Translations under genes and position numbers: made by a program
NCBI GenBank assembly: GCA_043228905.1
Contig: JBHGNT010000009.1
Coordinates: 21,018,001-21,082,000, forward strand
From: Azolla caroliniana
Lineage: Eukaryota > Plantae > Polypodiophyta
DNA length: 64,000 nucleotides
Direction of reading: 5' to 3'
Part shown: one piece after another, positions 10,971 to 50,599 of the stretch
Layout of the letters: each line of letters begins with the position of its first letter
Numbering within the stretch: position 1 is the first letter of the stretch
The notes under the pieces: model-generated
Told to the model about the DNA's origin: nothing
What the model saw: the letters and a program-made list of their open reading frames with translations, nothing else
Database searches by the model: none

Positions 10971-11694
10971 TGTCGTGCCTTTCGGCTCCGGATCGTTGCG
11001 TGAGTCGGGTGGGAACCGCCGAGGTTTTGGACTAGGAGAAAGAAAAATACAAATAAGGCTAGTAAAGAATAGGTATAAAGAGTTATAAGATAAGAATCTC
11101 GTGAATCCCACGAGTTTAGTATATTTAGTCAATATTTAGGTAGTAAGAGAGAATTATTTTAGCAAATTCGTGAATCCCACGAATATTTTAGATTGATTGA
11201 TCATTATAGAAAAATAATCAACAAAAACTACAATGTGCTCCCCATCCTTATATAGTGATGGGAGAGACTAAGCATAGCTACATGCTTTTTTTCTAATATG
11301 TTCATGCACACTAAATGTGCATGTGATGCTTTTCTAATCCTTGCTTTTATTTGCTAAATATAGTGCTCATGCACGCTAGATGTGCATGAGTCACTTTTTA
11401 GTTGCTTGCGTTTTTTCTATAAAATATTCACACGCTCTAAAAATGCACGATTTACCTTTTAATAAAGGTAGGCACAAATAAAGGACTTATAGTTATTAAA
11501 TCTATTTGTAGAATACTAAAGATAAGGTAGCATAATGGTAAAGTTGAGGTTCGGTTATGTGGAGGTATAGGGTTTGAATCTTGCCCTATGCACGTGATAA
11601 ATATTTTGATATTCTTATTTTATTTATTTATATGTAATTAAATCGGTTATATTATTTTTACTTTTTCACGTAGTGTACGAAATACACTACGACA
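10971..11694 (-). mobile_element. 3' LTR of a Gypsy element
   Basis: TG..CA ends, preceded on the minus strand by the PPT GGAGGGGGCGAG. TATA-like CTATATAAG at about 11247-11255. The ends resemble those of the Gypsy at 42103-49141. Confidence 0.75.
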
Positions 11695-13446: not shown

Positions 13447-13878
13447 GAACAGTACTGAGACAGAGAAGGAATTAGTACTAAACGAAGGATTAGTACTATG
13501 AGAGGTGTGGAACTTCTTCGAGAGAAGGAAGAAGTGAGCGAGACAGAGAGAAAGAGAGAGAGAGAGAGAGAGAGTGAGAGTGATGATAAGAAAGATATTT
13601 ATTATATGAAGAGAATATACAACGGTGGCTAAAAGGCTTAAGACTGGCGTTGAACCAATTTGGTTCAACATAATGCCTAGTGCCCTCTTTTATAGTGTTT
13701 TCAGGAGTAATCCTGAAGCTTCTAGAATGTTCCAGAGAAATCTGGAATATACACTAATTTCCTATAATAAAATGTAAATGAAAATAATATCCTACGTATT
13801 ACAATAGATGGTCTAATGGTCAAGAGCTCGACCCATATAACCTAAGGTCATGGGTTCGAGTCATGCCATATCATGACA
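13441..13878 (-). mobile_element. 3' LTR of a chromovirus-type Gypsy
   Basis: TGTCATGA...TCATGACA ends. PPT AAAAGGGGGATAG immediately upstream on the minus strand. TATA CTATAAAAAG at about 13686-13695. Confidence 0.8.
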
Positions 13879-14565
13879 CTATCCCCCCTTTAAAACGACG
13901 AGTGTCACGGGTCGTCTTTGATTGAGGACCCGGTTTGTGTGGATATTGACGATGGAAGTCTTCAAGAAGAGCACGAGCATTGGTTACATTCTCGTTAAAA
14001 CGACGAGTGTCACGGGTCGTCTTTGATTGAGGACCCGGTTTGTGTGGATATTGACGATGGAAGTCTTCAAGAAGAGCACGAGCATTGGTTACATTCTCGA
14101 TCGGTTCCCAAGTACGTTCGCTGGGACTATAGCCTAGCCAATCGACTAGATAGTAGAGCTTGTTGCGAACAATCTTGGAATCAAGAATGGCGGCAACCTC
14201 GTACTCCGGCCCATCTTCAAGCTCGATTGGGGGTGGAGGTTGGATAAGACGTTCTGGGATGGTGCTCTCGTGGTAGGGTTCGAAGAGAGAACTATGAAAC
14301 ACCGGATGTATCCGAAGTTGAGGAGGTAGATCGAGACGAAAAGCAACATCATTAATCTTTCCAATAATACGGAAAGGACCTAATCGCCGATAATCCAACT
14401 TCTCACATGGGCGAGTAGTCTTGATGTGTCGTCGTAGCAACCACACCCGATCTCCAATATTAAAACTAGATGGAAGTCGATGACCTAATCGCCGATAATC
14501 CAACTTCTCACATGGGCGAGTAGTCTTGATGTGTCGTCGTAGCAACCACACCCGATCTCCAATAA
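13879..14565 (-). mobile_element. Chromovirus integrase C-terminus (SH3/GPY-F motif plus chromodomain) fragment
   Basis: KLDYRRLGPFRI..IHPVFHSSL and EYEVAAILDS..YYLVDWLGY..TWEP. Two internal tandem duplications of about 100 bp. Confidence 0.88.
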
Positions 14566-17500
14566 TCGTGGGATTCACGAAAATAATATAATCTATACTT
14601 GTGGGATTCACAAGTTTCTTATATCTTTCTTTCAATCTAAATACATATTCTTATCTAAATATTGATTAATCGAATACAATACACTCGTGGGATTCACGAA
14701 ATTTCTATCTCTCTTTCTAATAATCTATTCATTACTAGCCTCATCTCATATTCTTCTTTCTCCTAGTCCAAAACCTCAGTGGTTCCCACCTGACTCACGC
14801 AACGATCCGGCGCCGAAAGGCACGACACCGCCTTGTGGCTAAGAAGCCACCACCAAGCCTTAATTTTTTCTAGCATATCCAATGCCCATAGTCTCCTCGA
14901 AAACAACTTTAAATCGTCGTCTGAAATGCCTTTATCCTTCCAGCTGTTGCGAATCATTCTAGCATCCACGATTTTGGAGCCAACGATTCTTCTTCCTAGC
15001 TTGGTATTGTATTCAAAAAACTTTTTCAAGTTTTTTGTTCCTGGTGTCTACCACCAAACCTCCAATGGGTCCCACTCCAAATCATATAAGGGCTTATTAT
15101 CGTAAAGCCATATTTTACAATCATGATCCAGTGTCTTAGGGTTTGGGTTCAATTGCCACCACTTACCCTCCAACATTGTCACCCGCACTGCCATCCACCT
15201 ACCATCATCTGTCAAAGAACTTCGGTTACCCCACAAACGATCCTCGCTAGTTGAGCACCTACCACAGATAAGTTGTGCGTCGCCCTCACCTACAAACCAG
15301 CCCGACCAAACTGTCTCTTCCGCAGTCAACTTATCCAATCCATCAACAACCCCATCTATCAGTTGGGTTACCTTCGCTAGTCTTCCAGTAATCCTACAAT
15401 TAACAATCTGACCTGTCCGCCTCTTCATGCTGAAAACCTCCCAATCGTGTACCGACCGAATCTTGTACCCTAGCATCTTCCCCCAAGGCAAGTACTTTTG
15501 TTGTCCAAGCATCTTACCATCTTCACTTCTAATCCTAGGGTTCCAAAACAATGGTTGTCGTAGCTGTTCATCCAGTGTTTTCGGTTGCATTAAGACTAAC
15601 CCTTCTCTTAAACTTGACCATGCCTTCATTATGGCGTGAACCACTCTATCCTCCATGCTAGCCGATTCTTTCAACTTTAGAGCTGGGCTGAACAACCACC
15701 ATGTATTTGCCTGCCAAGGACCACCATTCCTGGGACACCAAAGGTAAACTCTATTCCTAAGGAGCACCTTCCACAATTCTGGTCCGGGTTGCAAATTTCG
15801 CACTAAAAGCTTACCAAGTAGAGCCTTACTTTGGTGAACCGGATCCACCAGTCCAAGTCCTCCCTCATTCTTTGTCTTAACTAAACAACCCCACGCCACT
15901 TTAGCTGATGCCTTTTCATTGTCTCTACCTGACCACAAGAAGCCTCTCACCATTGCCTTAATATTTTTTATGCAGGCTTTGTCTAACATCCAACATGCCA
16001 ATGAATGCCACATGATGGCCAGCAAAATATGGTTCACCACCACAACCCTACTAGCAAGGGAGAGCTTTACTGATGCCCACAACCGAAGCTTTTTTCTAAT
16101 TTTGTCTTTGACCTGCTCAAGTTGCTAATTTTTTGGTGTCTCAACTCCCACCAAAAAGCCCAAATACTTAACAGCCATGCCATTGGGGACCCATTGAAAA
16201 TCAACGTTGGGACACCATAACGGTCGTGGGTTTGAACTTACCCAGAATCCTCTACTTTTGTTCCAGTTAATTTCCCCCCCCTGATGCATTGCAAAAACAC
16301 TCAATCCGTCCTTTCACCTTCTGTAAATTAGTATCATTCCCTTGCAAGTAAAGCATAGTGTCGTCTGCATACTCAGAGTCCAGCAACTCCTTACTCGCAT
16401 GTGGGATAGCTAAACCTCTTATTCCTGCATCTGATCTGTTCAAAAAGAAAGAGAATGCTTCTGTAATAAATAAAAAAAGATAGGGGGCCAGCGGGCACCC
16501 CTGTCTAACAGACCTATGTGATGGAATCGATGGGCCACGATGCCCTATCAATAACACCCTACTCGAACTTCCTTTGTAAAGGGCTAGCGCAGCTGATCGC
16601 CATTTTAAAGGTAGACCCAACCTTTCCATGACTCTATCTAAAAAAGGCCACTAAACTCTGTCATATGCCTTCTCAAAGTCAAGCATGAGACAGGCAATGT
16701 GCTGATTGGTTTTCTTTGCCAAGGCAATCGCCTCCCAAAATGTCAGCACATTATCAATTATGTATTTGTTTTCCATGAACCTTGTTTGTCCAACATGGAT
16801 TAGTTCCTGCAGGTAGGGTTTTACCCTCTTGGCTAGTATATTAGCAAATATCTTATATATTGTGTTTAGTAGCGTGATTGATCTCCATTGCCTTGCATCA
16901 GTTGTTACACCATGGCAAAAAACTTTTTGAGGATGTGGAGGTGAGTAGAAACATAAGGCGTATGTGGGAAAGCAATTCGGTTGGATGTGGCGCACTTGAT
17001 AAACTTCGAGGGAAGATTATCGAAACGTCAACCTATCTCCATAAGGCGACGAAAAGTAGAATTACGAGGTCTAAGGAGGAAGAAATGTGTTTAAGGAGAT
17101 CAATAACGGCTGCCTAAAGGCTACTACAGAAATATCCCCGATGCCAATGGTCTAGGGCAGGCCTCGAGGTTGCCAAAGAAACGTTGCAATGCTTGATTGC
17201 ATCCAGAAATACGATGTTATTTAGGAGTTCGGTTGCATGGTGGAGCAAAAATGGGGATAAGGTGAATAAACAATTTTTCATGCATAAACAACCTAGAACA
17301 AACTATAGCTACAATCCGAAGCTGGTTAAGGAAGATGGCTCTATCTCGGAGGATATTTCAAAGATCTTGGAGGCGGTCCCCTCACACTATCATGAGTTGC
17401 TTTCGAATAGTTACAATAGCCCTGAACAACCTACTATGATAGAATATGTGCTTGAGGGAATGCAACATAAAATTTCAGATGCGGCACAAGCTAATTTGGT

Positions 17501-18508: not shown

Positions 18509-20044
18509 GTTTGTCAATCTTATGTTATTGTTTTCCTTTTCTCATGGTTTAGATCATAAAACATCCATATCACTTTTTTTGTGTCAAATTAGCCAACAAG
18601 TTATAGAATGTTCAATCATGTGGGTATTAATTCAATGTCCATGATGTATTTTTGTCTATTGAGTTATATAGAATGCCAATGATCGAGTTCTGGGGCTACT
18701 TTTGGTTACTTGTGCCACACCGTAAACAACATGATATCATATACGAAAGGTGACATTCACCTATGCATTCAACTCTTCTCCTTATGTATGCTACATGGTC
18801 TCGATAAAGTTCTAATATTTGCAACTTATGTTAAGATCATTTATGTTGTCAAACAAGTGTAAATATTTCATGAAATATATAAGAGGTGGATCAATATTAC
18901 TAAACAAACTATGCATGAGCAATGTTTTTTATGCAATTGTGTAGATTCACATTTATCATAATTGGTGCATCGTCACTACTATGATAATTTAAAATAAGTT
19001 CTTTTAGTATATTTGAAGCTGGAAACTTTCTTCATCTATAAGTTTGTCAAGTAATTTGAACTAAGCTAGCCATGCGATAAAATACATTGCATCTATTAAT
19101 TTGTCCTACATTAAAAATGTAATTAAATCTATTGCATCTATTAATTTTATGTAGATTTGTTTATGCACATTTATTGACATCTTGGCCTTCTATACATGAA
19201 TATATTTCCCCCATAGTTATTATAATGTTCAAGCCTAAATTCCTTGAAGAGTTCCACATATTAAGGGGTCGCATACATGCCACATCACTTGTGTTTGTTG
19301 CGCTACACGTACATGTTTTATGCATGAAACCGATGCCCACCGCGGTTTGTTCTTGTATTTGACAACAAATAGCATTGTTTCCATTCCATTCCAACATTTG
19401 TAACCGTAACAAACTATCAAACCTCGAATTACAATGATAACCACCAACGACACAAAGACATTGATAATACCCACAAAGAGAAAGCCACCAACAATAAAAC
19501 CTCTTCCTCTTCCTTGTGTTTCACAACATTCAGCGATTGACTTCTCGATCTCGTTGGAAGCACCCCCACCAAACTAGAGTGACCCCCTTTTAATGACACC
19601 ATCGAAAGTAATGATGCTTAGGGTCAAGAATACACAGACAAACAAAAGGAATATATCTACATATCTAATCTTAACCCACATCACCAATCTTTCTCTAGCT
19701 TCAATACCAATCAATTGGGGTCAATATCCTACCCACTTTCCACCAAAGAGACTTCGAGATGATAGTTGCTAAAATACATCCGGTGGTCTTTAATTTTCGG
19801 AAGGGATTGTTTATGCATTAAGTGTTCCATTCTTGATTGATTAGGCATGATGTTCGAAAAGCTCACTCTCATTGGGCTAAGAGAAAAACCCCGAACTTTC
19901 TTTCGAGGGACGATTACCTTTCGATTAATTAGCGAGTGATTAGGGAGTTTAAATAAGTGAGTGATTAATTAGTGAGCTTAACTACTGCAATGTGGTGCTA
20001 ACTACTCTGTTCATATATCATTCATTCTGAGGGGAGAAGAGTTT

Positions 20045-23000
20045 ATGGAAACAGGACATAGCTTCTCCCCTCTCTGTGGCTTCTCGACTCTGTCTCCTTG
20101 GCCTCCTGAGAGAAAACTTAATTTCGTTCCTTCATTCAGATATGGATTAACTGGCGATTACCTCCTCATCCCTTCCTCTGAAAGATCGTCAAGGATGACG
20201 AAAGAAGTAAGTAAAGAGTCTCTTCCTTTTCCTTGTATGTTGTTGCCTGAACAGATCAGAGCTCAGATTAGGGAGGAATCCCATATTTCCATTGAAGATT
20301 GTGTTCTGATGATCCAAAAATGCGTGAAAGACAAATGCGTACATCATGCTACAGGTTTGTATCTCTATTTCTGTATGAATGGATTGGAAAGCCATGATAT
20401 CCTCGGAAACAAACTGATATCCATGTGGGTGGAAGTAGGAAGTATTGTAGATGCTGAGAGGTGTTTCTACAAGTCCGGATCAGTCTCTGACTCATTGTGT
20501 TGTTCGCTAGCTAATGCTTACCTGCGAATCGGGGACATGAAAAATGCATTTTTTCTGTATCACATGATGCAGGAAGATACTATGTATCAATTTCGTACCC
20601 TTATTGACTTATTAAAAGCTTGCTCTAAATTTAAAGATGTTGGAATAGGATATGAAATTCATGCTGAGATAATTGAGAAAGGTTTTATTGAAATCAATCC
20701 TTATCTTGGTAGTTCTTTGGTGGATATGTATGCCAAATGTGGTTTACTCTCGAAAGCACAGCAAGTGTTCAATTTGCTTCTTATTCGAGATGTTGTCCCA
20801 TGGACGGCATTGATTTCTGGATATGTCCAGCATAATAATGGTATAGAAGCTCTGAATTGTTTTGAGCAGATGCAGTCTGAGGGTATCACTCCAAATGATG
20901 TCACATTTACATGGATCCTGAAAGCTTGTGCTGGAAGTGGAGCCATATTGGAAGGCATAGAGATACATAATGAGATTGTCAAGAAGGATTTGTTGAGAAA
21001 TAATCAAATCCTTGGAAATGCACTGGTGGATATGTATGTGAAATGTGGAAACCTAGCAAAAGCACAGGAAGTGTTTGATGATCTTTTGGTTCGTGATGTC
21101 ATCTCCTGGACTACTCTTATTTCAGGTTATGTCAAATATGAGCACCACAGTGAGAATGCACTTAACTGTTTCAAAAACATGCAACTTGAAGGCATTCAGC
21201 CAGATGCTTTCATATTTACATGCGTTCTGAAAGCTTGTAGTAACCTTAAGGCAATTGAACAAGGCAAAGAGATACATTTTGAAATTCTTGAAAAAGGGCT
21301 GCTGAAAGGAAACCTTTTTCTTGGCAATGCGCTGGTAGACATGTATGCCAAATGTGGGTTTCTAACAAAAGCAGTTGAGGTATTCCATTATCTTCCAGCT
21401 CATGATGTCGCCTCCTGGAATGCGTTGATTTGTGCATATGTACAACATGAGTGTGCCATGGAAGCACTTAGCTGTCTTGACGATATGCAGAAAGAAGGTA
21501 TCTCACCAGATGTAATGACGTATGCTTGTGTTCTAAAAGGTTGTGGAATCATTGGTGCTATTGGTAGAGGTAATGAAATACACATTGAGATTTATAAAAA
21601 GGGTTTATTGAATACAGATCTTTTTCTTGCCAATGCATTAATTGATATGTATGCAAAATGTGGTGCGATTAGGAAATCTGAGGAGGTATTTGACAAGATA
21701 AGAATTCATGACATAGTCTCATGGAATATTCTAATTTCAGGATACGTGCAACATGAATGGAATGGAAAGGCATTGGCATGCTTTGAAAAAATGCAGCTTG
21801 AAGGGGTTTGTCCAGATGCTTTCTCATTCACGTGCAGCCTGAAAGCCTGTGGCAATATAGGAGCTACAAATGATGGAAGAAAGATACATAATGACATTGC
21901 AAAGAAGGGTTTGTTAGAAAGTAATATTGCTATTGGAAATGCATTGCTTGACATGTACGCAAAATGTGGTCTTCTCACAGAGGCACTGGAAATATTTAAA
22001 GAACTTCACATTCCTGATGTTGTCTCATGGACTGCGTTAATTTCAGGCTATGTCGATCACAAACTCTGTAAGGAAGCTTTAGATTGCTTTGACCAGATGA
22101 AACTAGAAGGCATTGCCCCAAATATCATTACATTTGCTTGCAGCTTGAGAGCATGTGGCAGCATTGGAGACATAGAAAAAGGTAGAGAAATGCATTCAGA
22201 GCTTGTTGGAAAAGGATTGCTTGAAGAGAATGATATTGTTTTGGACACCACATTGGTTGATATGTATTCCAAAATAGGTTTTTTATTAGAAGCAAAATAT
22301 GTATTTGACACTCTTGGAGTCCAAGATGTTGTTGTGTGGACCGCTCTTATTGCAGGTTATGCTGCACACGAGCAAGAAGAGGAAGCACTAAGCCATTTCA
22401 ACCAAATGCAACTTATGGGTCTTTCTCCATCTGAGTTCACATACGCTTGTATCTTAAAAGCATGTGGAAGCTTAGGAGCTGTAGACATGGGTAGAAAGAT
22501 TCATTGTGATATTGAAATGAAAGCATTGTTAGATAATAATTTTGTTGTTGGAACTGCATTGATTGATATGTATTCTAAATGTGGTTTACTTAAGGAAGCA
22601 CAGATTATATTTGATGAACTTCGAGTTCGAGATCCAATCACATGGAATTCTCTGATTACAGGATATTCTCAACTAGGAGAAACTGAAGTTGTCCTCAGTA
22701 TGCTAGAAAGAATGAGAGCAGATGGTAATGAACCTGATGCAGTGACTTTCCTATGCATCATGAATTCATGTTGTCATGCAGGCCTAGTGAAGGAGGGTGA
22801 GATGTACTTTGGGGCAATGAGAAAATGTAATGGCGTTACTCCTACCCTGGAGCATTACACATGCATGGTTGATCTCTTTGGTCGAGCAGGTCAACTAGAT
22901 AGAATGGCAACTATGATGGAGGAAACATCGTTGAACTCTAGTGTTGTGATGTGGCTGGCTGTCTTGGCTGCATGTAGGAGGTATGCTAACATCGAGATTG

Positions 23001-23095
23001 GAAGACAGGCCTTCGAACAAGTGACACAATTAGATAAGAAGGGAGCTTCTGCCTATATTTGTATGTACAATATATATGCTGATGCCGATATGTGA
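20045..23095 (+). CDS. Intronless PLS-class pentatricopeptide repeat protein with a partial E domain (organellar RNA editing factor type)
   Basis: 1016-aa ORF with repeated LVDMYAKCG / DVVSWTALISGY / TFxCILKAC triplets. The C-terminus has EHYTCMVDLFGRAG..WLAVLAACR and no DYW domain. Confidence 0.95.
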   Translation: METGHSFSPLCGFSTLSPWPPERKLNFVPSFRYGLTGDYLLIPSSERSSRMTKEVSKESLPFPCMLLPEQIRAQIREESHISIEDCVLMIQKCVKDKCVHHATGLYLYFCMNGLESHDILGNKLISMWVEVGSIVDAERCFYKSGSVSDSLCCSLANAYLRIGDMKNAFFLYHMMQEDTMYQFRTLIDLLKACSKFKDVGIGYEIHAEIIEKGFIEINPYLGSSLVDMYAKCGLLSKAQQVFNLLLIRDVVPWTALISGYVQHNNGIEALNCFEQMQSEGITPNDVTFTWILKACAGSGAILEGIEIHNEIVKKDLLRNNQILGNALVDMYVKCGNLAKAQEVFDDLLVRDVISWTTLISGYVKYEHHSENALNCFKNMQLEGIQPDAFIFTCVLKACSNLKAIEQGKEIHFEILEKGLLKGNLFLGNALVDMYAKCGFLTKAVEVFHYLPAHDVASWNALICAYVQHECAMEALSCLDDMQKEGISPDVMTYACVLKGCGIIGAIGRGNEIHIEIYKKGLLNTDLFLANALIDMYAKCGAIRKSEEVFDKIRIHDIVSWNILISGYVQHEWNGKALACFEKMQLEGVCPDAFSFTCSLKACGNIGATNDGRKIHNDIAKKGLLESNIAIGNALLDMYAKCGLLTEALEIFKELHIPDVVSWTALISGYVDHKLCKEALDCFDQMKLEGIAPNIITFACSLRACGSIGDIEKGREMHSELVGKGLLEENDIVLDTTLVDMYSKIGFLLEAKYVFDTLGVQDVVVWTALIAGYAAHEQEEEALSHFNQMQLMGLSPSEFTYACILKACGSLGAVDMGRKIHCDIEMKALLDNNFVVGTALIDMYSKCGLLKEAQIIFDELRVRDPITWNSLITGYSQLGETEVVLSMLERMRADGNEPDAVTFLCIMNSCCHAGLVKEGEMYFGAMRKCNGVTPTLEHYTCMVDLFGRAGQLDRMATMMEETSLNSSVVMWLAVLAACRRYANIEIGRQAFEQVTQLDKKGASAYICMYNIYADADM

Positions 23096-37515: not shown

Positions 37516-40500
37516 TCAATCTATAAGCAAATTTGGCACACTAGGCTCTTCAGGCGCTGATTGTTCTAGACTATTCTCATTTGTGTCATCTCCACGCTCT
37601 CTTGAATCTAATGTATGTTCAAATTGTGTTACATCTTCTAGGTCCACAACCTCCCCTGCTTCTTCATCAATAGGTTCCATTGGTTCTCGTGAAGTCATTT
37701 GGAACATCTCTGTCTCATTGATGTGCTTAGCTCCGACTTCTTGATCCTGATCTAGACTGTCCCAGATTCCTAGGATCCTCATTTTGATGAAGTTAACTTG
37801 TGCAGGGTCCTTCTCCAAGGCAACACAGTTTTGAAACATCTTCAATGTACAAGTTGTTGTAGTACCTAATGGTCGCATGAACACGAACAAGTATATATAA
37901 GAATTAAAGTCTTAAACTTGATCGACAGAAATGAAAGTAAATATATTTTATATACATGTGCCAGAGAACAAGTCTAGGACCCAATCATCTGGATTCGAGA
38001 AGAGCTCTAGGAGGCAATTGATCAATCTTTGAGGTTTTTGATAAGGATTCACCATACTCTTATCTCCCGAAACATGCCTTAACTTTTTTGTGACAACTAG
38101 GCACATGATATAATTTACCACGTTTCGCTCATTGACATGTGCTGTAGCCTTCTTCTTTGTTATTGAATCATAGTAACCCACACAAAAATGTTCGACTGCA
38201 CTAACCATTCGATCGCCAGGGCTACATGTAATATTTGTTTTAATCCTATAGAGAAATAAAATCATGTTTTAGAGGTATGAATGTCAACATATAATAACAA
38301 GTACCATAATGATTAAAAGCAAACTGTAACACACCAATGCATGTGTTCAGTGGCATGACAACGTGACTTCAAAGCTGTTGTGACTGATAGTGATTGCCCC
38401 ATGCTATGGAATATGATTATCCTCCTCAAGGGGGCCAACGTTAGTTCAGCGAAATCCTTTACCATCTTCTCGATTTGGGGGTACTTGAAAGGCACATCAT
38501 CATATGTTGATCCCGCAATTCAGAATCCATATGGTATGTCGGCTATCAGCAAAGTGTAGTGCCTTCTCGGTAACAGATCGAGCATTTGTGATACTTCCCC
38601 ATTAAAAACACTATAATACAACTGTTTATAACGATCGAACCTATGCAAAAAACTCTTCACAGTCTCTGAATCCTCAGGCAGTTCCATCTCTTTCTCTTCT
38701 CATACTTTGCACGTTCTAAGTGCGTGATAAAGGCAACTGGAATACCATCATTACTGTCGTTGGTCTTTATTTACTTTGATGGTTTTTGCAAGTGTCAATG
38801 TTGTTAGGAGAGAACATTCGCTTTCAATATATTAACATTCAAATGACACATACCCATTCTCTAAAAACAATGAAATATTCCTCCAATGCCTTGTACGAAG
38901 AAGTTATCGGGCACGCTTGCTCCACTTCTTCCCATGTCGGTAAACTCAATTTTTGCATCATCAACTCCTGAATCTTTATGTATACCTTGTGACTATACAA
39001 TAAATATGAAATATGAAATTAGAAATTAATAATAATTGAAGAATATCCTGAAACATTGTATACTATAAACCCTTACTTTTGCAATTTAGTTACCATCTCG
39101 TCCAAACTAAATTCCTTTGCAACAACTTGAGATAGCACGGATATTAATAGCCTGTCATCTTTAATACCTTGTAATGACCTCCAAGGTAAAAGTTTCATGT
39201 CTGCTGCTAACTCCTCGATTACCAAGTCACTTTTGCCCTTTGACTTCGATTTGATCTCAACTTGTGGATCAATCCTTCCCCTCTTTGACCTTTGCCCTTT
39301 GACTTCTTTCCGCTCCCACATGCCAAATATTTTTTCCTGGAGATCCCACACCTCTCCGGTCCAAAAGGTTAGTTGAAACCAAGAATCATATTTTTGTAGC
39401 CCTTCTGATTTTGTGCTCTCATCCATTGCAATCCCCACTTCTAGTAAACACTGGTGACGCAAACCAGGCCACAACCTTGGGCCAAAACGATTTAAGGCAT
39501 CTAGGTACTCATGATGAAAAAATCAAATCCTTTCAATACATGACATCTTTTGACTATAATCATTATCATTGTTATGGTCCCATGTCAGTAACTTCGCCTC
39601 CTCGTGAGTGGGTCCTGCATATACCTTACATTCGGCGTACTTAAAGAAGGGGGTGAGAGGATATTCTTTCACTAGCTGTCTACAAGCTTCGGCTGAATGC
39701 GATCCTCCAATTACATAATATGTATAATCATTAGCAGAGGTATACTTAAAGTCTGCTACTGTTGGACATTGTTCTTGATCAACCATTACTAAAAATGGCA
39801 CGATAGTAGCATGAGGATTAATTTTCATTTTCCTCTTCAAGTTTTGCACATGGACAGTATGCGACTCTCTAATTTCTAGGGGACGTCTTCCAGTCAAGGG
39901 ATCAATTGTAGGCCTCTGGATAGAAGTAATTGGCAAATGAAATAGCTGCCCCTTACGCACAAGTTTTGTTTTAACAATATTTTCTCTTATTTTATTTTGT
40001 TCAGACGTCAATACATCGAAAGATAGTTGACCTCCCGGAGCCACGACGTCGACTTGGTGCTCTTCTTCTTCCTCCACGAATTCTAAAACCTCTTCATCAT
40101 CTTCCTTGGGTCGTGGTCATTTGTTGTATTTCTTATGAACCAGATTTGTCTTTCTAGACTTTTTTGGTGGAGTTTCTGCTTCACCGCTCATCATTTCTCC
40201 TGTCACATACGGCCGCAGTGCAACTAATAAGTTGTTTTTCGTTTGTAGGTCTTTACGTAATAATGACTTGGGGTTGCAACATTCTGGTACTAGGTTTCCC
40301 TTGTAAAGACGCAATCTTTTAGAGCCAACAGAGCTGGAGACATCGATTATAATACTTGAGGAATCAATGTCTTCGTATTCTAAGTTGGTTACATGTCCAT
40401 AGTTAAATGTTTTTCCAAGCTCCAATTTGCCTTTACCGTCTGATTTAGTTGTTATTAAGAGCAGCACCCCATCTTCGTCGACATAAGAGAGACACCATTC

Positions 40501-40716
40501 TAATTCTGGGTAATTCTTATATTTTACTTCAGATGCTTTCTCTTCCTGGGCCACACCCTTGTTATTTTTGGTCGTTGCAACAGAAGACTTAGATCTTCCA
40601 TCCCCTGTTGAGTCAAATAGAGTTCTTTGGAAACATCTTTGACAAAAAAGTCAGAATCTCGCTTTGTTGGAGATCGAATATTTAATTTAAACGAAGGAAC
40701 TTTCTAACGAGAGTCA
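37516..40716 (-). pseudogene. ParB/Srx-like domain fused to a beta-class N6-adenine/N4-cytosine DNA methyltransferase, spliced and disabled
   Basis: Inferred exons about 39077-40716, 38854-38992, 38335-about 38786, 37956-38245 and 37516-37865. ParB-like YYVIGGSHSAEA..ECKVY..EAKLL..HN. MTase motifs VFNGEVSQMLDLLPRRHYTLLIADIPYG (motif IV, 38529-38540), WIK..E, NPYQKPQRLINCLLELFSNPDDWVLDLFSGT-TT and CVALEKDP..IKMRI. In-frame stops and frameshifts are present. Confidence 0.82.
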
Positions 40717-40886
40717 CTGAAATTAAGACAACATCCTATTTAGGTTAATTACAAACAAAAAAGTCAAATAGAGTTCTTTGGAAACATCTTTGACAAAAAA
40801 GTCAGAATCTCGCTTTGTTGGAGATCGAATATTTAATTTAAACGAAGGAACTTTCTAACGAGAGTCACTGAAATTAAGACAACATA
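40611..40886. repeat. Direct duplication (about 125 bp, 151-bp period) at the 5' end of the ParB-MTase gene
   Basis: AGTCAAATAGAGTTCTTTGG...GAAATTAAGACAACAT at 40611 and 40761. Confidence 0.85.
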
Positions 40887-41019
40887 CTATTTGAACAAAA
40901 ACGATGGAGAAAGCAGTAAAATGAAGAAAAATTAAATGCAAAACGCTAAAAATAGTATAGAAATTATGAGAAAACTGTGACGAGGGACATACATTTTCAA
41001 TCTGCAAAACCCTAATTTA

Positions 41020-41161
41020 TCAACCAAAATCCGATGCACTGCATTGGATTGTGGTTGAAAGGTAGTTCCCCTCAACCAAAATCTGATGCACTACATCGGA
41101 TTGTGGTTGAAGGTTGTACCCTTCTACCACAATCCGATGCACTGCATCGGATTTTGGTTGA
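41020..41161. repeat. Three tandem 39-bp palindromes
   Basis: Consensus TCAACCAAAATCCGATGCA-C-TGCATCGGATTTTGGTTGA at 41020-41058, 41072-41110 and 41123-41161. Confidence 0.9.
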
Positions 41162-42102
41162 AGTTTAAGTCAATCTTAATTCGGTTGTATGTTCCCTTAG
41201 CAAAAAAATTAAGGATTATTGCTTATTGTGAAAAGGAATTTTTTAGAATCTTAAAAAATGTAAAGAATATTGCTAACCTAGCGATCTTCTTTCCCTTGTT
41301 CATGATGCCTGGCGGAGGTAGTGCTTCGGAGTGCTTGAAAATAAGTTTGTGCTCTGAGCTCAATGGACTCTTTGTTGCGATAATGAAAATGAAATTTGCA
41401 ACCTCCTTATATATAAGAGTACTTTTTTATTTAAATAAAAATTATTTTTTTTTAAAATTATTATTTTTTCTCTTCTTAAAAAGTATTATAGTCTAACCAA
41501 GACCTCATGTCTAGTTCTAATAGTTATATAGTAAAGCTTCAACATTCCTTAATCTTCTCTAAAGAGGAGTTAGTATATAGCCCTTTCATGGTATTGCCAC
41601 AGGGTTTTTCTTGATAGTTTTGAGAACGTTTTCTTCTACAAGTAGAACATTTTTTTTATTCTATTGCCCCCTTTTCTTTGTCCAACAACTCGTATTTCTC
41701 AATAGAAGAGTACGATTACAAGAAACATTCAAAAGGCTCGCGGCAAAAACAAAAAAGTGAGGCTCCTAGTAGTTCGAATTATCTTTTTTCAATTGATCCT
41801 GTTAATGGCCCTCTTCATGTAAGCTTAGAAGCGGATGATACTTCTATAGATAACAGTAGTATTAGTAAAACTCTTGCATTTAAAAGAATTCCTTGACAAG
41901 TTAGTGAAAAGAGATTTAATTTTTTATGCTCTGATCGTCAACTTCTTTGTGACTTGAACAAAACATGTTGTGCGAATCTCTGCCTTTCAACTTATGGAAA
42001 GTCGAGGTTACATGAAACACGTCAAAAGTACTTGTGGCTTAATGGGGAAGAGCAGGACACATTTCTTCTTTCGCATATGCAACTTAAAATGGATCACAAC
42101 GC

Positions 42103-45100
42103 TGTCGCGTTACTACGCGCGTGTGTGGAGAAATGAGGCGGGACCACCAGGGTCTTGAACCGAAGAGCAGGTGATAGAAGGGGAAAGAGAAAGAGAGAGA
42201 CGCCCGGTCACGTATGAGCAAAGAAACACAGGGGCACGGCCCATCAACGCAGAAGACGCGAATGGACACAGAGACAGGAAGACACAAATGTTTGTATATT
42301 AACGAATGACAAATAAACAACAGAGCACGCGAGAGGTTACAACTGAACAGGCCAGCGAACAGATGCCGATGCCTGTTCGTCTGCGCACGAAAGGGGATAG
42401 GATGGAGGTGCTGCCGGAAGCACACGGGCGTTCCTCGAAGCAGCGCGAGCCTCCCGAAAACCTGCAGAGAAGAGCGATGGAGAACGAACAGAGGAGAAGC
42501 GTTCGGTTACGGTCCGACCACACTTCGTCCTCCTCAATGCGCGATCCCTCTCCCTGCGTCTCCCACTCTTTTTATAGCTTCAAGAGGGGAGCCGTTTCCC
42601 TCATTTACTTCCTACCTACCGAATCTAACTACCCAGGATATACCTATGTACCTAATTCCCTATTATATACATCAAAGGCTGCGCACGCGTGAAGAGCCGG
42701 TTCACGTGCGCTATGCACCGATTGCGCTAAGGGACGGTTTTCTTCACGACATCCGCCCCCACCTAACCGCGCATCCATCGGTATGCACCAAAATTGCGCT
42801 CTGGTTGGAGAAAACCGGTCCGAGTCCTGGTTCTTCGTCCATCGGTTCGTCCTTCGTTTCGGACTGTTCGTCGTCGCTGTCCAGGCCTCTTAGATCTGGT
42901 CCGCCGTCGTGGTGCTTCTTGAATGCTTTAATCCGCTTCCCTGCTACCGGTATCGCCAACCTCGTACCGTTGAGTTCCGCCAGGTGATACGTCCCGTTGT
43001 CGTTGGCGCTCGTTACCACGTAAGGCTCGAACCACCGCTTTGCAAACTTCCGTGTTGCTCGGTGCTGGTTGTCGAGGTTGCTATCGTAGACCAGCACCCA
43101 GTCGCCTTCCTCGATTTTCTTTGGTCGGAGCCGGTGCGTTCGGTCGAACCGGGCTTTGTTCTTCATCCTCGCCGTCCGAAGTCTTTCCGCCGCTCGTTCC
43201 ACGTCCTCTGGCCTCCGCTCGAGCTGCCGTATACGCGTCGCTAGCAGTTCTTCCCGACTCATCTCGTCTCTCCAGTCCACTGTCGCCCAAGAGGAGATCG
43301 TCCGTTCCATCGGCATGATTGGCTTCTGTCCGAACATGAGCTCTAACGGCATGAACTTGGTTACCGAACTGTGCGTTGTCTGGTCCGCCCACAAGGCATA
43401 AGGTAACAGTCGTGGCCAGTTCCCGACCTGGCCTCCGCATGCCTGGACCAGCGCTTTGACGATCGGTCCGTGTCCGCGCTCCAGCTTCCTGTTCGCCTCC
43501 GGATTGTACGCTGTGGTGAGCAAGAGCTTGACCCCTAACCGTTCGAACAACTCCTCGACCTCTTCGGCGTCCAACTCCCCGCGGTCAGCCACGATCTTCC
43601 CGACTCACCCGTACCGGCATATCACGTCCTCGATCAGGAACCGACACATGGCCGCAGTCGTTTTGTTCTACAGGGCTCGGCCTTCCACCTGGTTCGTCAG
43701 GTCCTCCCGGGCCAGCACCAGATATCGCATCTGCCCTACACCCATCGACATCGTCACCAAATCTACCATCCATTTGAAGTGGATGGCCGGAGGGTATGTG
43801 GGGTGAAGCTCGTCCCGATGTCGGACTATGGAGTGCATTTGACAGCTCTCACAAGTTGTCACGAACCGATGCACGTCCCGGTACAGTCCCAGCCACCAGT
43901 ACTTCCCCTTTAGTTTCTCGAACGTGGCCCACGTCCCTCGGTGTCCAGCCTAGGGGCTGTCGTGGTAGGCCTTCAACAACTCCTCCTATTCCTCCTTCAT
44001 CGCCACTACTCGGAGCGGGATGCCGTTTCTCTTCTTTGGGTGCTTCCACAAGTATCCGTCCCGGAGAAAGAATCAGTATGCTTTCTTCCGGATCCGGTTG
44101 GCCTCGTCCTTGGTCCATGACGCATCCGGCGTCATCATCCTCAAGAATCCCCCAATTTGCAGCCACTGCCCGTCATACTTGCTCTCATTGAAATCGTTAA
44201 GTGCCGGGGTGCTCCCCCCCTCGGTGGTCACGTAAGCCGCCTCGAAGAAGTCCACGCCGACTTCCTCGTCCTCCGAAACCATGCCGCCCTCGTCGTCGAA
44301 TCGCGCCCTCGAAAGCATGTCGGGCATGGCATTGTCTTTCCCGGAAATGTGTCGTATTTCCAGATCCAGAGACTTGATATACGCTATCCACCTGAGCATG
44401 GCTAGGTCCGAGGTTGCGCATCCGGAAACCATGCCGAGAATCGGCAGGCAGTCCGTCTCGATAATCACCTCTGTCCCGATCAGATAGTCTTTGTCGGCCT
44501 TCACCGCCGAAACGATACCCCAGAGTTCGCGTTTAACCTGGGCGTATCCTCGCTATCGCTTGCTGAGGACCTTTGCGCCGAACCGGATTGGGAACCGAAT
44601 GCCGTCCTCATCTTCTTGGTTGACGACCCATCCGATCCCGGTCGGACTTGTATCTACCGTTATGTAGATGGGAGTCCCTTTCTCGTAGACAGCCTTCTGG
44701 AGTGCCAGAGCTACAGCAAGAGCCTCCTTCATCTTTCGGACCGACTCCGTATGCTCGACTCGCCACTCGAATTTTCGCCCTTTTTTCAGGTACCCGTATA
44801 GCGGCTCGGCAACGTGGGCGTAATGCGGGATCCATATGTGGTAGAACGCGCATGCTCCCAAGAACCTCCGTACCTCCGTGACCGAGTTACAATCGGGCTT
44901 CATTGCGGAGATGGCTTCCACCTTAGCCGGAGACGGTTTCCGGCCATACGGTCCGCATAGATGTCCGACGACCATGATCTCTGATTGCCCGAATGCCGAT
45001 TTTTCCCCGGAGAAGGTGAGCCTCGCATCCTCTAGCCTCTGCAGCACCCTCTCGCAGTCGTCAATGTGCGTAGCCACGAATTTCCGGCATCTGTCCGGTC

Positions 45101-48100
45101 CGATCGTTTCGTCCCTTTTCTCCACCGGACATCCCTTGATCGGGATGTCATCCAAGAATGGCATGGTGACGTCCGGGATACAATCCCTCAGCACCTTGTT
45201 CATCGCATTCACCATGTGGGCCACCGAGTTCGTCCCTCCTTGTGGCAGGGTACACATCCGCACTAGGCCGAGAGGAGTCCGCATCGTCGTAATGTCTTTG
45301 CTCTCTACGGCTAGTTGGAACTGATCGTACCCCGAGTACAGATCACCGACCGAGTAGATCGACCTTCCGGCGAAGGCCTCCGCGAACTCGTCTATCGTTG
45401 GTCCGATTCCTATGTTCCGAATGGTCACTCTGTTGATTGGTTGCAGGTCTTGAATGAAGCGCAACGTCCCATTCTTCTTTTGTACGGTAAACCACCGGTT
45501 CGAGTACGGGGCACTCAATGGTTCGAGGATGCCCATATCGACTTTCTGCCTCAATAGCTCCATCAGCTCCAGGATGTGAGCTCTCGGTACCGGAATTGGT
45601 TTGAGATTCCACGGCACATGCGGTACCGTGAATATCACCATCGGCTTCACGACTGTCGGGTCTACACACCCGATCTCTTCCGGCGAGAATGCGAAGGCTT
45701 TCCCGTGCCTTCCGAGCATTCTCCGAAACCGGTATTCTTCCGCCGGCAGTAGGAACCCGCCCCCACCGATTTTGAGCTCCCGTAGTGTTCTGTCGGTGAA
45801 GGTGTGTCCTATACAGGCCGGATCTCGTAAACTGGGGTCCGAAGCGACCCCCTTGATTCGCAACTCGCTGCCCTCCGGTAAGGGTGCCGCGACTGGCCTT
45901 ACCTTCCGGTCCACAGTCTTGTACTTCGTGTTAACCCGGGCCATCCGATCCTACTCGAGCCCTCGACTGAAGTCCGCAATGACTTCGTACATCTCTTCTG
46001 AACAAACCGGTATCGTTCGGTCCTCTTTAAGGCCCTCTCTGACCACCTCTCGCAGTATTCCCAAGGTATCGTCGAAGGAGACTGCCTCCACGGCTCCGTT
46101 GATTTCCTCGCTGGGCCTGAGAACTCCGCACGCCCGAAGTCGCTCTTCCGCCCTTGTCTTTTCTCGGCCAACGACGCCGACTATCGTACACCCTCCGTTG
46201 TCGGAGAAACAAAACTTCCTACTTATGGTACAAGGTTTCTTCGGTTTCGCCTCTATCGGACATTTGTGGGGTTTTCCCGGAGTGTCCGGACTGTCACGGC
46301 CCCACGCCTTGACAGCCCTCTCTAAAAATCCTCTCGGTTCTCGCCACCGAGGGACTCGCGGTTTCGCTCGTGGTTCGGTCGCACCGTCAGGAACTCGACC
46401 GAATGACGCCCGTCCTGACTCTTGACCCTCGCGTAAGCCGACCCGTTGTCCAGCACCTTGGTCTCCATCCGTGCTGCCGTAATGTATGGTTCTCCCAGTA
46501 TGACTGGGTGCGAGGACGTCTCCTGCACAAAGAAGTGCTGATCTATCTCGACGTCGCCGATCTTGACTCGCACGTTTGGGCAAGCCCCGTGTAGTTCCTC
46601 AGTGGCGCGCGTCGCCGCCCGTATCTTCCACCCGTGCTTGGTGTTGACCGGCCATTTCCCCTTCTTGTAGAAGTCCATGGACATCAGGTTTATTTCCGAA
46701 CCGTGGTCCACCAGTGCCACCACCGGTTCCTGAACATCTCCGATCTTCACCGGGGTTTCCATGGTCGCTCGGGCCCAGTGTGGCCTCGAATAGTGGCTCT
46801 CCGCCCACTCGTCTTCCAGCGCCATGTCCTCTATGTGCGTCGTCCGCACCTCCACCGACCTTTCTGGTTCTGCCTCCGTCGACAGCCTCTTCCTCTTCAC
46901 CAAGTCTACGATGGAGTCGTGGAACTCCTTCTTGGCGATTCCGAGCACCTCCTGCAACGACAGTTCCACCTTGCTGTCGAGGATTCGTTCTTCCAGGACC
47001 TTTCGTAGGTCCGTGGTCCTTTCGATCTCCGTGCCCAAACGGTATCCGCCCTTCTTGTGGTTATCCCGGGCACTGGTCTCACCGGCCTCGTTCCGTTTCG
47101 GCCCGAATCGGGTTTCGTATCTCTGTGAGGGTCCGGCCCCTCCAGTTTTACCTACACGTTTGTCTTCAACCAGAGCCTCGTAGTTCTGGCAAGCTGCTTC
47201 GACGAAACCCGTCTTTTCTTCGACCGGGTCACTCCACCCGGTTACCTCCTGGACCCGCTTCTCCGCGCGGTCCGCCTCGTATTTCTTTAGTCGGGCACCG
47301 GCGAGGCCTTCCAGCACCGTCAGCCAGAACCCGGCTTTGCTCTCTTTCCGGACCTCGCTGCCTCCGACCCGAATACCGGCTAACGCTGAGTAGTGGACAG
47401 TCTCCGCGTGCCGGGCCGCCGCCTCTTCCATCAGCCTCTTCATTCCTCCTCGCCTGTCGTTTCGATTCAGGGCCCTCCAGGTATCGCTGGCGTGCAGCCG
47501 ACCTTCCCACAGGTACACTACCCGGCTTCTCAAAGCCTCCGCAAAGTCCCCGCAGTCTTTCCGGATGTGGCCGACCTCGTCGCACCACATGCACCTATTT
47601 CCTGCCAGAGGCCGTCGGTCACGAGCCTGTTCGCCGCCTTCCCTCCGAGCTTGGGCGATCTGGAGATCCTTTACCGCCCATGTCAACTCCTCCAAAGCTG
47701 TTCCCCCGGATGAGCCTCTGACCACGCCGGTCGAAGCCGAACCGGTTTCGGGCCACTCCCGGGTCTCTTCCCTTCGCGCCTGTGGTATCGGTTCGAGCTT
47801 CCTTGCTGCGACAGGACCCGCCCCGGTCGCCCTTGTATCAGCCCACTCCCACCGTTTGTCAAAACGGTAGCAGACTCTTTTTACCGCGGCCCAGTTGGCC
47901 GTCAGCCCGTCTTCGGTTTCCAGTAAGGAGCCCACTTACTCCCGATCCCGTGCGTCAACCGATTTGACAAACAGTAGGACACGACTTGTGTCTAGAACGG
48001 TCCGATTGAGCGTTGAAAGGCGCGCAAAACGTTCCTCATACTCCCGGAGGAGTACCGACGCATTTCTTCCTTTGTTGGGGGACTCCACCCACTCCATGAA

Positions 48101-49141
48101 GCCCCGCTTCGAAAGTCGAAGTGCGTCATCCAGCCCGTATTTCTCCAGGAGCCGTCCTTCGAACTCCTCCCAGGTTTGGCTCTCCGCCCGGACCTCGAGC
48201 ACCTCCGCATGGATGCCCGACATCGCCACTCGAGGGAATCCGGCAAGACGCCTCTCTTCCGGAATATCCCTCATCAGCATCTCCGCCCAGTAGGAAGCCA
48301 AATAACTCGTGGCATCCTTTCCACTGAACCGGCCGATCGTACCGTCGATCGCCTCAATAGCCCTGTCAAGGGCGCTGGTGCCCTCGCGCGCGCTCACTAT
48401 CCGGTCCACGGCCGAAGCCATGGCCTCTCCAAGATCCGACCCCCTCATCTTCTGCTCCTCTGCCGCCTTTTTCACGTCGGGTTCACCAAATATGTCGCGT
48501 TACTACGCGCGTGCGTGGAGAAACGAGGCGGGACCACCGGGGTCTTGAACCGAAGAGCAGGTGATAGAAGGGGAAAGAGAAAGAGAGAGACGCCCGGTCA
48601 TGTATAAGCAAAGAAACACAGGGGCACGACCCGTCAACGCAGAAGACGCGAATGGACACAAAGACAGGGAGACACAAATGTTTGTATATTAACGAATGAC
48701 AAATAAACAACAGAGCACGCGAGCGGTTACAACCGAACAGGCCAGCGAACAGATGTCGATGCCTGTTCGTCTGCGCACGAAAGGGGATAGGATGGAGGTG
48801 CTGCCGGAAGCACACGGGCGTTCCTCGAAGCAGCGCGAGCCTCCCGAAAACCTGCAGAGAAGAGCGATGGAGAACGAACAGAGGAGAAGCGTTCGGTTAC
48901 GGTCCGACAGCACTTCGTCCTCCTCAATGCGCGATCCCTCTCCTTGCGTCTCCCACTCTTTTTATAGCTTCAAGAGGGGAGCCGTTTCCCTCATTTACTT
49001 CCTACCTACCGAATCTAACTACCCAGGATATACCTATGTACCTAATTCCCTATTATATACATCAAAGGTTGCGCACGTGTGAAGAGCCGGTTCACGCGCG
49101 CTATGCACCGATTGCGCTAAGGGACTGTTTTCTTCATGACA
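42103..49141 (-). mobile_element. Full-length non-chromovirus Ty3/Gypsy retrotransposon (gag-PR / RT-RH-IN)
   Basis: 649-bp LTRs at 42103-42751 and 48493-49141 with about 20 mismatches. 4-bp TSD ACGC and PPT AGGTGGGGGCGGA. Gag CMWCDEVGHIRKDC, PR LVDHGSEIN, RT PFLDD, RNase H and integrase (AYNPEAN) are present, with several premature stops. Confidence 0.96.
48471..48488 (-). promoter_or_regulatory. Primer binding site complementary to tRNA-Trp
   Basis: Minus-strand TGGTGAACCCGACGTGAA lies 4 nt inside the 5' LTR boundary. Its complement TTCACGTCGGGTTCACCA matches the 3' end of plant cytosolic tRNA-Trp as recalled. Confidence 0.8.
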
Positions 49142-50599
49142 ACGCAGGGCCTAATCCTACGCAAGTTGAATATTTCCTTGGACTAACTACTAAGTGTTGT
49201 TGAACCACATTTAAAATTGCTCATAGCATTGGAAATATGTGGCTACAACGAGTTCAAGGGTGTCTTCTGAAGGGATTGTGGGTATTGTTCGATCGAAATG
49301 GTTCTGGATGTAAGGGTCAAATTGGGCAACATGTAATTAGGTGGATGGAAGTATATTTTTCAAAACAGTACAACATTATGCCTACGACAGGAAGACTTCA
49401 TTTGTCAGATAACTTTACTTGAAGGGAAGTTTACCAATCATACAAGGACGACATGTCGGTAGATGGTGCACCTTACGTATAGTATAGAAATTTTAATCGG
49501 TTGTGGAGGTTACAATTTAACAATGTGATTATCCCACGAAAGGTGAGAATGGGAGTCTATTCAATATGTGCAAGTTTAAAAAGTATGGCAAAGGGTGGAA
49601 AATCAGATGTAGAGATAAGGAATTACAAGAACCTATTAAAAGAACATCGTGAAAGTCGGCCATTGGAACGTTCTAAGGCTATGCATCACCGACAAAAAGT
49701 GCTTCAATCTCCAGAAAAGTATATGTGCATGATTATTGATGGCATGGATCAAAAGAAGACTTGTTTGCCGCATTTCCAACGACTCCCAAAAGATATTGGA
49801 GATGAGTGCCTCGTGCAAATGCATCTAGTAGGGTGTTTGACATATTGTCAAACAATAAGGCCACAAGTATTCTTAACTTATCCCAATATCCACAACGACC
49901 CTAATCTTATTGTCACCGTCATGCACAGAGTATTGCAATCATGGTCCTGCATAGTACCTCCAGTTCTATACATACAACTAGACAACACAACAAGAGAGAA
50001 TAAAAACTCAACTGTCTTCGGCTATCTAAGCATGCTAGTAGAGAGGGGCATATTTAAAAAGATAAAGGTCAACTTCTTATTAGTTGGTCATACCCATGAT
50101 CACATAGATCAAATGTTTAGTAGGTTCTCAAAGAATTTAGCTTGTTGTAATGCTTTCACGCTTACCACGCTATCCAAATTGATAAGTGAAGCATATACAC
50201 CAAAGCCTGAGGTACATCACTTGAATGAAGTGTATGACTTTAAACGTTTCTGCATGGATAGTGATAGGACTAAATGTAGGGTGCTTGCACCTCTTAATAA
50301 TATAAGTTTCAACCATGTTTTCCTCATAAAACATGTTTAAAAACAGGGGTTCAGCTTGGCCTTAGTCAAGGTAAACAACACCATTTACGGATTCATAATT
50401 CAGTTCTCGTTCTCTTTACTACTTTCTCTCTCTCTTTCTTATTATCTTGTCTATGATATCTATCGCTCTCTTTATATTGAGCCTCGTCTATTTGTCCATG
50501 ACATTGAGCTTGTCTTAGTCTATCAAACTGATAGATACACACTCTCTCTATCTCACTCAAGTCACTCAGACAACAACACCAAAGTTGGAGGCTCTCTTC

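Follow-up and report, generated by a model that had tools for sequence, protein, structure and literature searches.

A plant transposon family in which a predicted ParB-fold and methyltransferase fusion gene lies head-to-head with a transposase gene

We analysed a stretch of 64,000 nucleotides (nt) from the fern Azolla caroliniana (contig JBHGNT010000009.1, positions 21,018,001 to 21,082,000; hereafter the window), which contains the remains of a DNA transposon carrying two divergent genes, one predicted to fuse a ParB-fold region to a DNA methyltransferase (MTase) and the other encoding a transposase. Comparison by blastn with a complete member of the family, the metagenome locus L002, aligns the window copy at 37452-40726 (86%), 41122-42102 (76%) and 49136-50333 (90%), and this homology breaks off at 37452 and 50333. 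The features of the locus are the following.

37452 to 50333, no strand assigned: surviving part of the DNA transposon, whose family has terminal inverted repeats (TIRs), with a Gypsy element nested in it; neither the ends nor the TIRs remain.
41278 to 41303, minus strand: predicted mini exon 1 of the ParB-MTase gene, encoding MNKGKKIA, with donor AG/GT; inferred from loci L001 and L002.
41032 to 41149, no strand assigned: three palindromes of the CGATRC-N3-GYATCG type, at 41032, 41084 and 41135, in predicted intron 1.
39077 to 40716, minus strand: exon 2, with a variable N-terminal region, a predicted ParB/Srx-fold domain and a helical region; the fold is taken from the homologous L002 region.
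About 39500 to 40030, minus strand: predicted ParB/Srx-fold domain within exon 2, with GGSHS at 39694-39708.
38854 to 38992, minus strand: exon 3, a linker, projected from locus L004; conserved GT-AG introns.
38335 to 38764, minus strand: exon 4, with MTase motif IV; DIPY at 38529-38540.
37956 to 38245, minus strand: exon 5, MTase region with NPYQKP and DLFSGT (motif I, binding S-adenosylmethionine, SAM); PF01555 match.
37516 to 37865, minus strand: exon 6, with the end of motif I, ALEKD, an acidic tail and the stop codon; from six-frame reading and shared gene structure.
41626 to 42102, plus strand: 5' part of the transposase gene, amino acids (aa) about 13-157 of the 890-aa L002 protein (tblastn 80%); the start at about 41626 was placed by eye.
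49142 to 50333, plus strand: middle part of the transposase gene, aa about 153-553; PF25273 match, tblastn 88% to L002; cut at 50333.
42103 to 49141, minus strand: Ty3/Gypsy retrotransposon within the transposase gene, with long terminal repeats (LTRs) at 42103-42751 and 48493-49141.

The original prediction, made from the letters of the window, had read amino-methyltransferase motifs in beta-class order on the minus strand, and six-frame reading recovers all of them: LLIADIPYG, W/IKTN, PYQKP (38032-38046), DLFSGT/GTT (37957-37974) and ALEKD, the second and fourth being split by introns. A single 106-aa frame of the window passes the N6_N4_Mtase profile PF01555 (E 5.1e-6; 27.0 bits against a cut-off of 26.7), as had been anticipated. 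The transposase motifs that it named, IIDGMDQ, QLDN..RENKN and GHTHDHIDQ, lie within 49483-50337, in a plus-strand open reading frame (ORF) at 49483-50340 that matches PF25273 (DUF7869, E 3.7e-48). Its spacing of about 1 kb between the two genes is correct for the 5' end of the transposase (about 41626) and incorrect for the catalytic part, which lies 7 kb further on, past the Gypsy element at 42103-49141. L001 and L002 share the mini exon, of the form ATG...AG/GTTAG, which is in phase with exon 2. In the window copy, the acceptor region of exon 2 is repeated by a tandem duplication of about 135 nt at 40625-40880. The nearest named relative is from Ceratopteris richardii, at 72% identity. The Gypsy element has LTRs of 649 bp that are 96.9% identical, a 4-bp ACGC duplication and matches to RVT_1, RNase H and an integrase zinc finger; it is absent from L001 and L002, and is a later insertion that stands outside the transposon family.

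The window copy is dead and truncated, and cannot write any mark. It is 94% identical to L004, and carries four stops in the MTase gene (40706, 40119 and 39525 in exon 2; 38522 in exon 4) and four in the transposase (41894, 49201, 49420 and 49480), all eight deriving from CGA or CAG codons, together with frameshifts from a 1-nt deletion near 40627 (exon 2) and a 13-nt deletion near 38694 (exon 4). C-to-T changes affect 19 of 159 CG and 21 of 166 CHG positions versus 16 of 846 CHH positions, a bias that matches the pattern expected under plant silencing by 5-methylcytosine (5mC). No TIR pattern was found in the window with up to three mismatches allowed. Retrotransposon-like DNA replaces both ends of the element; that at the left end, where Pfam gives no match, we take from one of its motifs to be Copia-like.

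To describe the family, we scanned metagenome contigs with an alignment of the ParB region, which gave 161 relatives, and took the family counts from the best 80 of these. A transposase on the opposite strand, head-to-head with the MTase gene, is present in each of the 11 loci whose upstream DNA spans 3000 nt or more, in 3 of 9 with 1500-2999 nt and in 0 of 60 with less; L043 has it downstream, oriented the same way. A complete 7.6-kb element is found in L002; its two head-to-head genes lie inside 37-bp TIRs at 180-216 and 7737-7773, and the transposase is a single ORF of 890 aa. The linkage that had been proposed stands as an observation. At nine junctions located through homology, the element ends in GTGTT and the flanks differ, and other subfamilies also have AACAC ends (the pattern in one of the searches required those letters). 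With terminal inverted repeats around a transposase and with varied flanks, the family belongs to the TIR cut-and-paste transposons; the description as a DNA transposon thus holds for the family, as L002 shows, and not for the window copy, which is without terminal repeats.

These data also bear on an alternative, in which a repeat-rich region has brought the two genes together by chance or the MTase is a bacterial contaminant. The loss of TIRs from the window copy and the metagenome origin of the related loci would be compatible with this. It is, however, refuted by the linkage in all the long loci, by shared TIRs and conserved spliceosomal introns, by a homolog on a Ceratopteris record of 190 Mb and by the CG/CHG-biased decay, which is typical of plant 5mC, and we give it practically no credence. 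In ten loci, the trees of the transposase and of the ParB region give the same three subfamilies, indicating that the cargo travels with the element; the pairwise identities of the two correlate at 0.70, the pairs not being independent.

The IIDGMDQ, QLDN and HIDQ motifs are invariant in nine transposase ORFs. The fold model of the transposase is of low confidence (predicted local distance difference test, pLDDT, 43) and its best Foldseek rows are weak integrase rows (E 0.046), with no Foldseek row at E <=0.001, no VIA row at Z >=8 and no sequence match in the PDB. The conserved C-terminal block of the L002 transposase past the catalytic core (aa about 700-830, PFWIAKI...VHWY) has no significant Pfam match and perhaps resembles a chromatin reader, which is an impression only. 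Sola transposons, like our family, combine short TIRs with a single transposase in which three Asp motifs are conserved (PMC10741241; PMC3845634). The earlier label Sola-like finds support in a published fern element, the Sola cluster_4009 of Cibotium barometz (4-bp target-site duplication, TSD; 19 autonomous copies; PMC12973397 Table S2), whose TIR matches that of L002 at 16 of the first 19 nt, compared by eye; Pfam itself gives DUF7869 alone. In rows 3204-3205 of that table, cluster_4008 and cluster_4009 seem to have exchanged their representative sequences, each opening with the TIR of the other. The AWWT target preference of Sola1 (PMC3845634) was not seen, 0 of 9 flanks starting with AWWT. 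The L002 flanks, ATTG and GCCA, differ and look chimeric, and no single insertion with both true flanks was available for a comparison of 4-bp TSDs. The CMCT clade (EnSpm, Lanisha) was ruled out by the AACAC..GTGTT termini and by a C(2)C before the first Asp, Lanisha being compared by description. Unlike our family, Sola has no MTase cargo noted in the accessible text of these sources, and the accessible supplement of PMC12973397 contains no N6_N4 or PF01555 entry.

The cargo gene is well preserved within the family. All five large exons are found in 36 of the 80 loci, and in 30 of these 36, splicing at four GT-AG introns, which share their positions and vary in length, yields a protein without stops that reaches about 970 aa; the first exon is not firmly placed in subfamilies other than that of the window. 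Annotated proteins of other genomes, which are also predictions, cross the same junctions (P0029 in alignment A4). After dropping L003 (short) and L039 (split exon), the remaining 28 models were reduced to 20 at 95% identity, among which invariant columns number 98 of 235 in the MTase and 94 of 180 in the ParB region. The median ratio of non-synonymous to synonymous divergence is 0.047 for the MTase (8 of 190 pairs unsaturated) and 0.033 for the ParB region (4 of 190), and 0.17-0.19 for the ends of the protein. Synonymous sites between subfamilies are mostly saturated, while gene structure, catalytic motifs and the palindrome array are still conserved. An intron-bearing MTase of bacterial type carried by a plant transposon, as originally proposed, is borne out by the profile matches, the linkage and the shared GT-AG introns; neither of the outcomes named as counting against the proposal, the lack of an MTase profile match and an MTase never linked to the transposase, came true.

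The fusion to ParB is upheld by predicted fold, in both Foldseek and VIA, and not by Pfam, which gives no ParB match. The model of the L002 region has a pLDDT of 80-90 in its core (mean 62.7). All ten top Foldseek matches are ParB or Noc proteins (best E 9.3e-4), and the VIA top 8 belong to the ParB/Srx family (PadC at Z 8.9, root mean square deviation 3.0 and 100 aligned; next row Z 4.0). Judged by these models, the upstream domain has a ParB-N/Srx fold; at the level of sequence, it has no match in Pfam, PHROGs or the PDB. The ESM Atlas places residues 250-567 of P0001, covering the ParB and helical regions, near fungal DUF3723 clusters (0.96), and DUF3723 is a family named in Starship papers. 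With E values up to 10 allowed, the Pfam DUF3723 profile matched none of eight relatives, so this placement is a lead only.

The MTase domain resembles prokaryotic N6-adenine enzymes in the order of its motifs and in its profile matches. In the PDB, a profile built from the MTase exons ranks CcrM first (E 2.8e-11, collinear over profile positions 6-238), followed by MboIIA, chain 5hek and RsrI, with the N4-cytosine enzyme PvuII at 0.057; NCBIfam likewise puts CcrM first, far under its cut-off. PF01555 scores in relatives reach 57.3 bits (P0029) and 65.7 bits (P0034), and motif IV stands ahead of the recognition region and motif I (positions 678, 814 and 838 of the L002 model). Motif IV reads ADIPYG in 42 of 42 matches. 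Compared with the (D/N)PP(Y/F/W) pattern, Asp and Tyr fit and Ile takes the place of the first Pro, for which the DLPY of 3 of the 7 phage relatives examined gives a precedent of a non-proline second residue. Because motif IV starts with Asp, the MTase is predicted to methylate adenine, and N6-methyladenine (6mA) is a likelier product than N4-methylcytosine (4mC).

Some enzymes of the DPP type make 4mC, and PF01555 spans both chemistries. The protein might thus write 4mC, for example on the palindrome CpGs, of which two are conserved per palindrome, and so block or mask host 5mC; both characterised eukaryotic beta-class enzymes write 4mC (10.1101/2021.02.12.428880; PMC8885841). We consider this improbable, since these known eukaryotic 4mC enzymes, N4CMT and DN4MT1, have the SPPY catalytic motif, which was not found here, no Ser-initial variant of motif IV occurs among the 150 relatives tallied, and N6-adenine enzymes outrank PvuII.

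It is also conceivable that the MTase no longer transfers methyl groups, the fusion acting as a DNA-binding protein for anti-silencing or autoregulation that has kept the fold. This would agree with motif IV being DIPY and not DPPY, with the variants DLPRG, DVWYE and DIPHG in some distant relatives and with the DIRS MTases, judged likely inactive (PMC4738411). The D, P and Y of motif IV, PYQKP and the FSGTG SAM-binding loop are nevertheless identical in all 30 stop-free models, and phage relatives have DLPY, which makes an inactive enzyme rather unlikely in our view.

Upstream of the main exon, a CGATRC-N3-GYATCG core is found in 31 of the 34 loci with enough upstream DNA. The sites sit 0.9-2.6 kb ahead of the KINPH motif in 188 of 202 cases, and shuffles of all loci (10 x 325,800 nt) gave 0-2 sites each. 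Spacings are 31-33, 40-42 or 50-52 nt in 105 of 154 cases, the window sites being 52 and 51 nt apart. In the window's subfamily, the array lies in predicted intron 1, behind a 26-nt first exon. An internally deleted member of this subfamily is nested in an element of another subfamily (L054:3280-5883), and keeps the right TIR and 10 palindrome sites without the ParB-MTase core. Such deleted derivatives could use the ParB-MTase protein in trans.

ParB and Noc recognise parS and NBS palindromes, respectively, and we model the docking of the fusion on this precedent. The gene anatomy is observed in the loci, and from it we infer the later steps. The ParB-MTase gene would be spliced and expressed in the host; its ParB-fold part, probably a dimer, would recognise the CGATRC-N3-GYATCG sites, spaced by 3, 4 or 5 helical turns; and the MTase would then methylate adenine near the array. 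Through the mark or the bound protein, the bidirectional promoter common to both genes, at a distance of about 300 nt, would stay open despite host CG/CHG methylation; VANC achieves this for VANDAL elements by other means. On balance, we think it likely that the fusion docks on its own palindrome array and writes 6mA on element DNA, with the shared promoter kept active.

Dam methylation times or biases the transposition of IS10 and Tn5, and CcrM-like enzymes read short motifs by a recognition region of their own. By analogy, the enzyme could be active and mark a short motif more widely, at element ends, at targets or in host DNA, timing or biasing transposition, while the palindromes serve as sites for the transposase or a transcription factor; the array does adjoin the shared promoter of both genes, and palindrome binding by the fusion is a prediction. 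The array is, however, internal and not subterminal (the one L002 site lies 3.4 kb from the nearer end), and the spaced 6-3-6 palindrome would suit a dimeric reader of ParB type. We regard this explanation as unlikely.

Several observations weigh against docking and self-marking by the fusion. The ParB model is moderate, and confidence is low in the helical region, the presumed reader of DNA. The ParB and Srx nucleotide-binding motif GxxR carries an arginine; the corresponding loop is here of the GGSHS/GGSHT type (alignment A3 and the Chara homologs, register by eye), apparently without arginine, so nucleotide-driven clamping may be lost. The palindrome motif is missing from L013, L015 and L051, and its counts are not independent, the motif having been drawn from the same loci and arrays growing by duplication. 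No transposase match was found in L013 and L017 despite more than 2 kb of upstream DNA. Assembly coverage is high at many loci, which are probably consensus sequences of collapsed repeats; this inflates apparent intactness, so that "intact" refers to families and not to single copies. The CpG observed/expected ratio of intact elements, 0.65-0.82 versus 0.72 for the whole window, shows no clear CpG protection, and no k-mer signature of protection was found. An hhalign comparison of the plant ParB region with phage ParB gave no alignment (probability 0.6). Finally, the DAM enzymes of retrotransposons were without 6mA activity in E. coli (10.64898/2026.05.21.726589), which also speaks for an inactive MTase.

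Relatives of the ParB-MTase protein also occur outside the ferns. A profile search of 1.84 billion representatives gave 263 matches at E <=1e-10, 150 of which were listed; among the 20 of these looked up for organism, the named ones come from Ginkgo biloba, Adiantum nelumboides, Chara braunii (3) and Riccia sorocarpa (2). In the Ginkgo, Chara and Riccia proteins, a single chain holds both the ParB region and the MTase, and fusions are annotated in Adiantum as well. A quick MTase tree without bootstrap, from which two Riccia rows were omitted as too short, places 28 plant-type rows apart from 13 that are phage- or prokaryote-like, without pointing to a donor. The best phage proteins share 25-27% identity. 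In the phage locus L087, parB lies directly upstream of the matching MTase, an arrangement described for phage ParB loci (PMC4738411). Viral contigs contained no relative of P0176, of P0067 or of the transposase alignment. The module may derive from such a phage-type pair of ParB and MTase early in streptophyte history. The broader proposal, that ancient streptophyte transposons carry a complete phage-derived self-marking system of ParB-type reader, parS-like phased array and 6mA writer, is possible, and we hold it tentatively.

The nearest logic among known systems is that of VANDAL and VANC, likewise a DNA transposon of plants in which an accessory gene is joined by tandem internal target motifs; VANC, however, removes 5mC and its motifs vary widely between families, whereas here a methyl writer of prokaryotic origin is predicted and the palindrome core is common to subfamilies (PMC5735166). 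The retrotransposons that carry DAM (DIRS, DAM-LTR, EpiLTR; 10.64898/2026.05.21.726589) are likewise eukaryotic elements with a prokaryote-type adenine MTase proposed to mark the element itself. They have a truncated Dam-type domain with NPP, in contrast to the full beta-class domain, ParB fusion, introns and cis array of a TIR DNA transposon. The same source describes DAM-LTRs as absent from Streptophyta, and its accessible text contains none of the terms ParB, N6_N4 and Ceratopteris. The Marchantia enzymes MpDN4MT1a/b (10.1101/2021.02.12.428880) and the bdelloid N4CMT (PMC8885841) are, like our protein, eukaryotic beta-class amino-MTases of bacterial origin. Those are SPPY host genes writing 4mC, N4CMT with a chromodomain and MpDN4MT1 with no added domain, whereas ours has DIPY and a ParB-fold partner and is transposon cargo. 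The TET/JBP DNA transposons of fungi are also TIR elements with a DNA-modifying enzyme as cargo, but belong to other superfamilies and carry dioxygenase erasers, and the accessible text of PMC12730594 does not mention Sola. The eukaryotic clades in the available part of the review PMC4738411 include no land-plant transposon-borne MTase. Our literature search, which left subscription journals, Repbase Reports and bioRxiv supplements outside its range, found no description of ParB-MTase cargo. The pairing of ParB-MTase and transposase is real, conserved and apparently undescribed.

The remainder of the window holds features separate from this family. At 19982-23095 (plus strand), a 1037-aa open frame with pentatricopeptide repeats and an E motif, followed by decayed repeats to about 24700, is probably a host RNA-editing factor gene. 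At 10968-14830, 82-nt inverted arms, 93% complementary and 3.7 kb apart, have repeated TCGTGAATCCCACGA sites near both ends and retroelement pieces between them, including an SH3-plus-chromodomain frame; this may be a further TIR element or a pair of inverted LTR ends. A tandem duplication at 25568-31133 (period about 3.29 kb, 90-97% identity) has parts that match 51318-51657 too, and a Copia element at 55048-60356 has repeats 5023 nt apart at 97% identity, with integrase and RVT_2 frames. At 53643-54128 (plus strand), GC-rich broken frames resemble a host gene fragment, with no Pfam match.

Robust 6mA has been tied to AMT1 (10.1101/2024.10.28.620566), and 6mA is described as not abundant in streptophytes (10.64898/2026.05.21.726589). 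Ferns now offer a conserved candidate adenine MTase borne by a transposon, and a liverwort, Chara and Ginkgo have relatives of it. This supplies a specific enzyme, locus and motif, and makes the disputed 6mA of land plants testable with nanopore or single-molecule real-time (SMRT) data. If the self-marking system is real, these elements would be a source of sequence-targeted 6mA in plants without the AMT1 pathway, and would constitute a natural programmable module for adenine methylation, possibly useful as a tool for sequence-targeted methylation. They would also represent a new route of counter-silencing, in which a foreign mark is written rather than 5mC erased.

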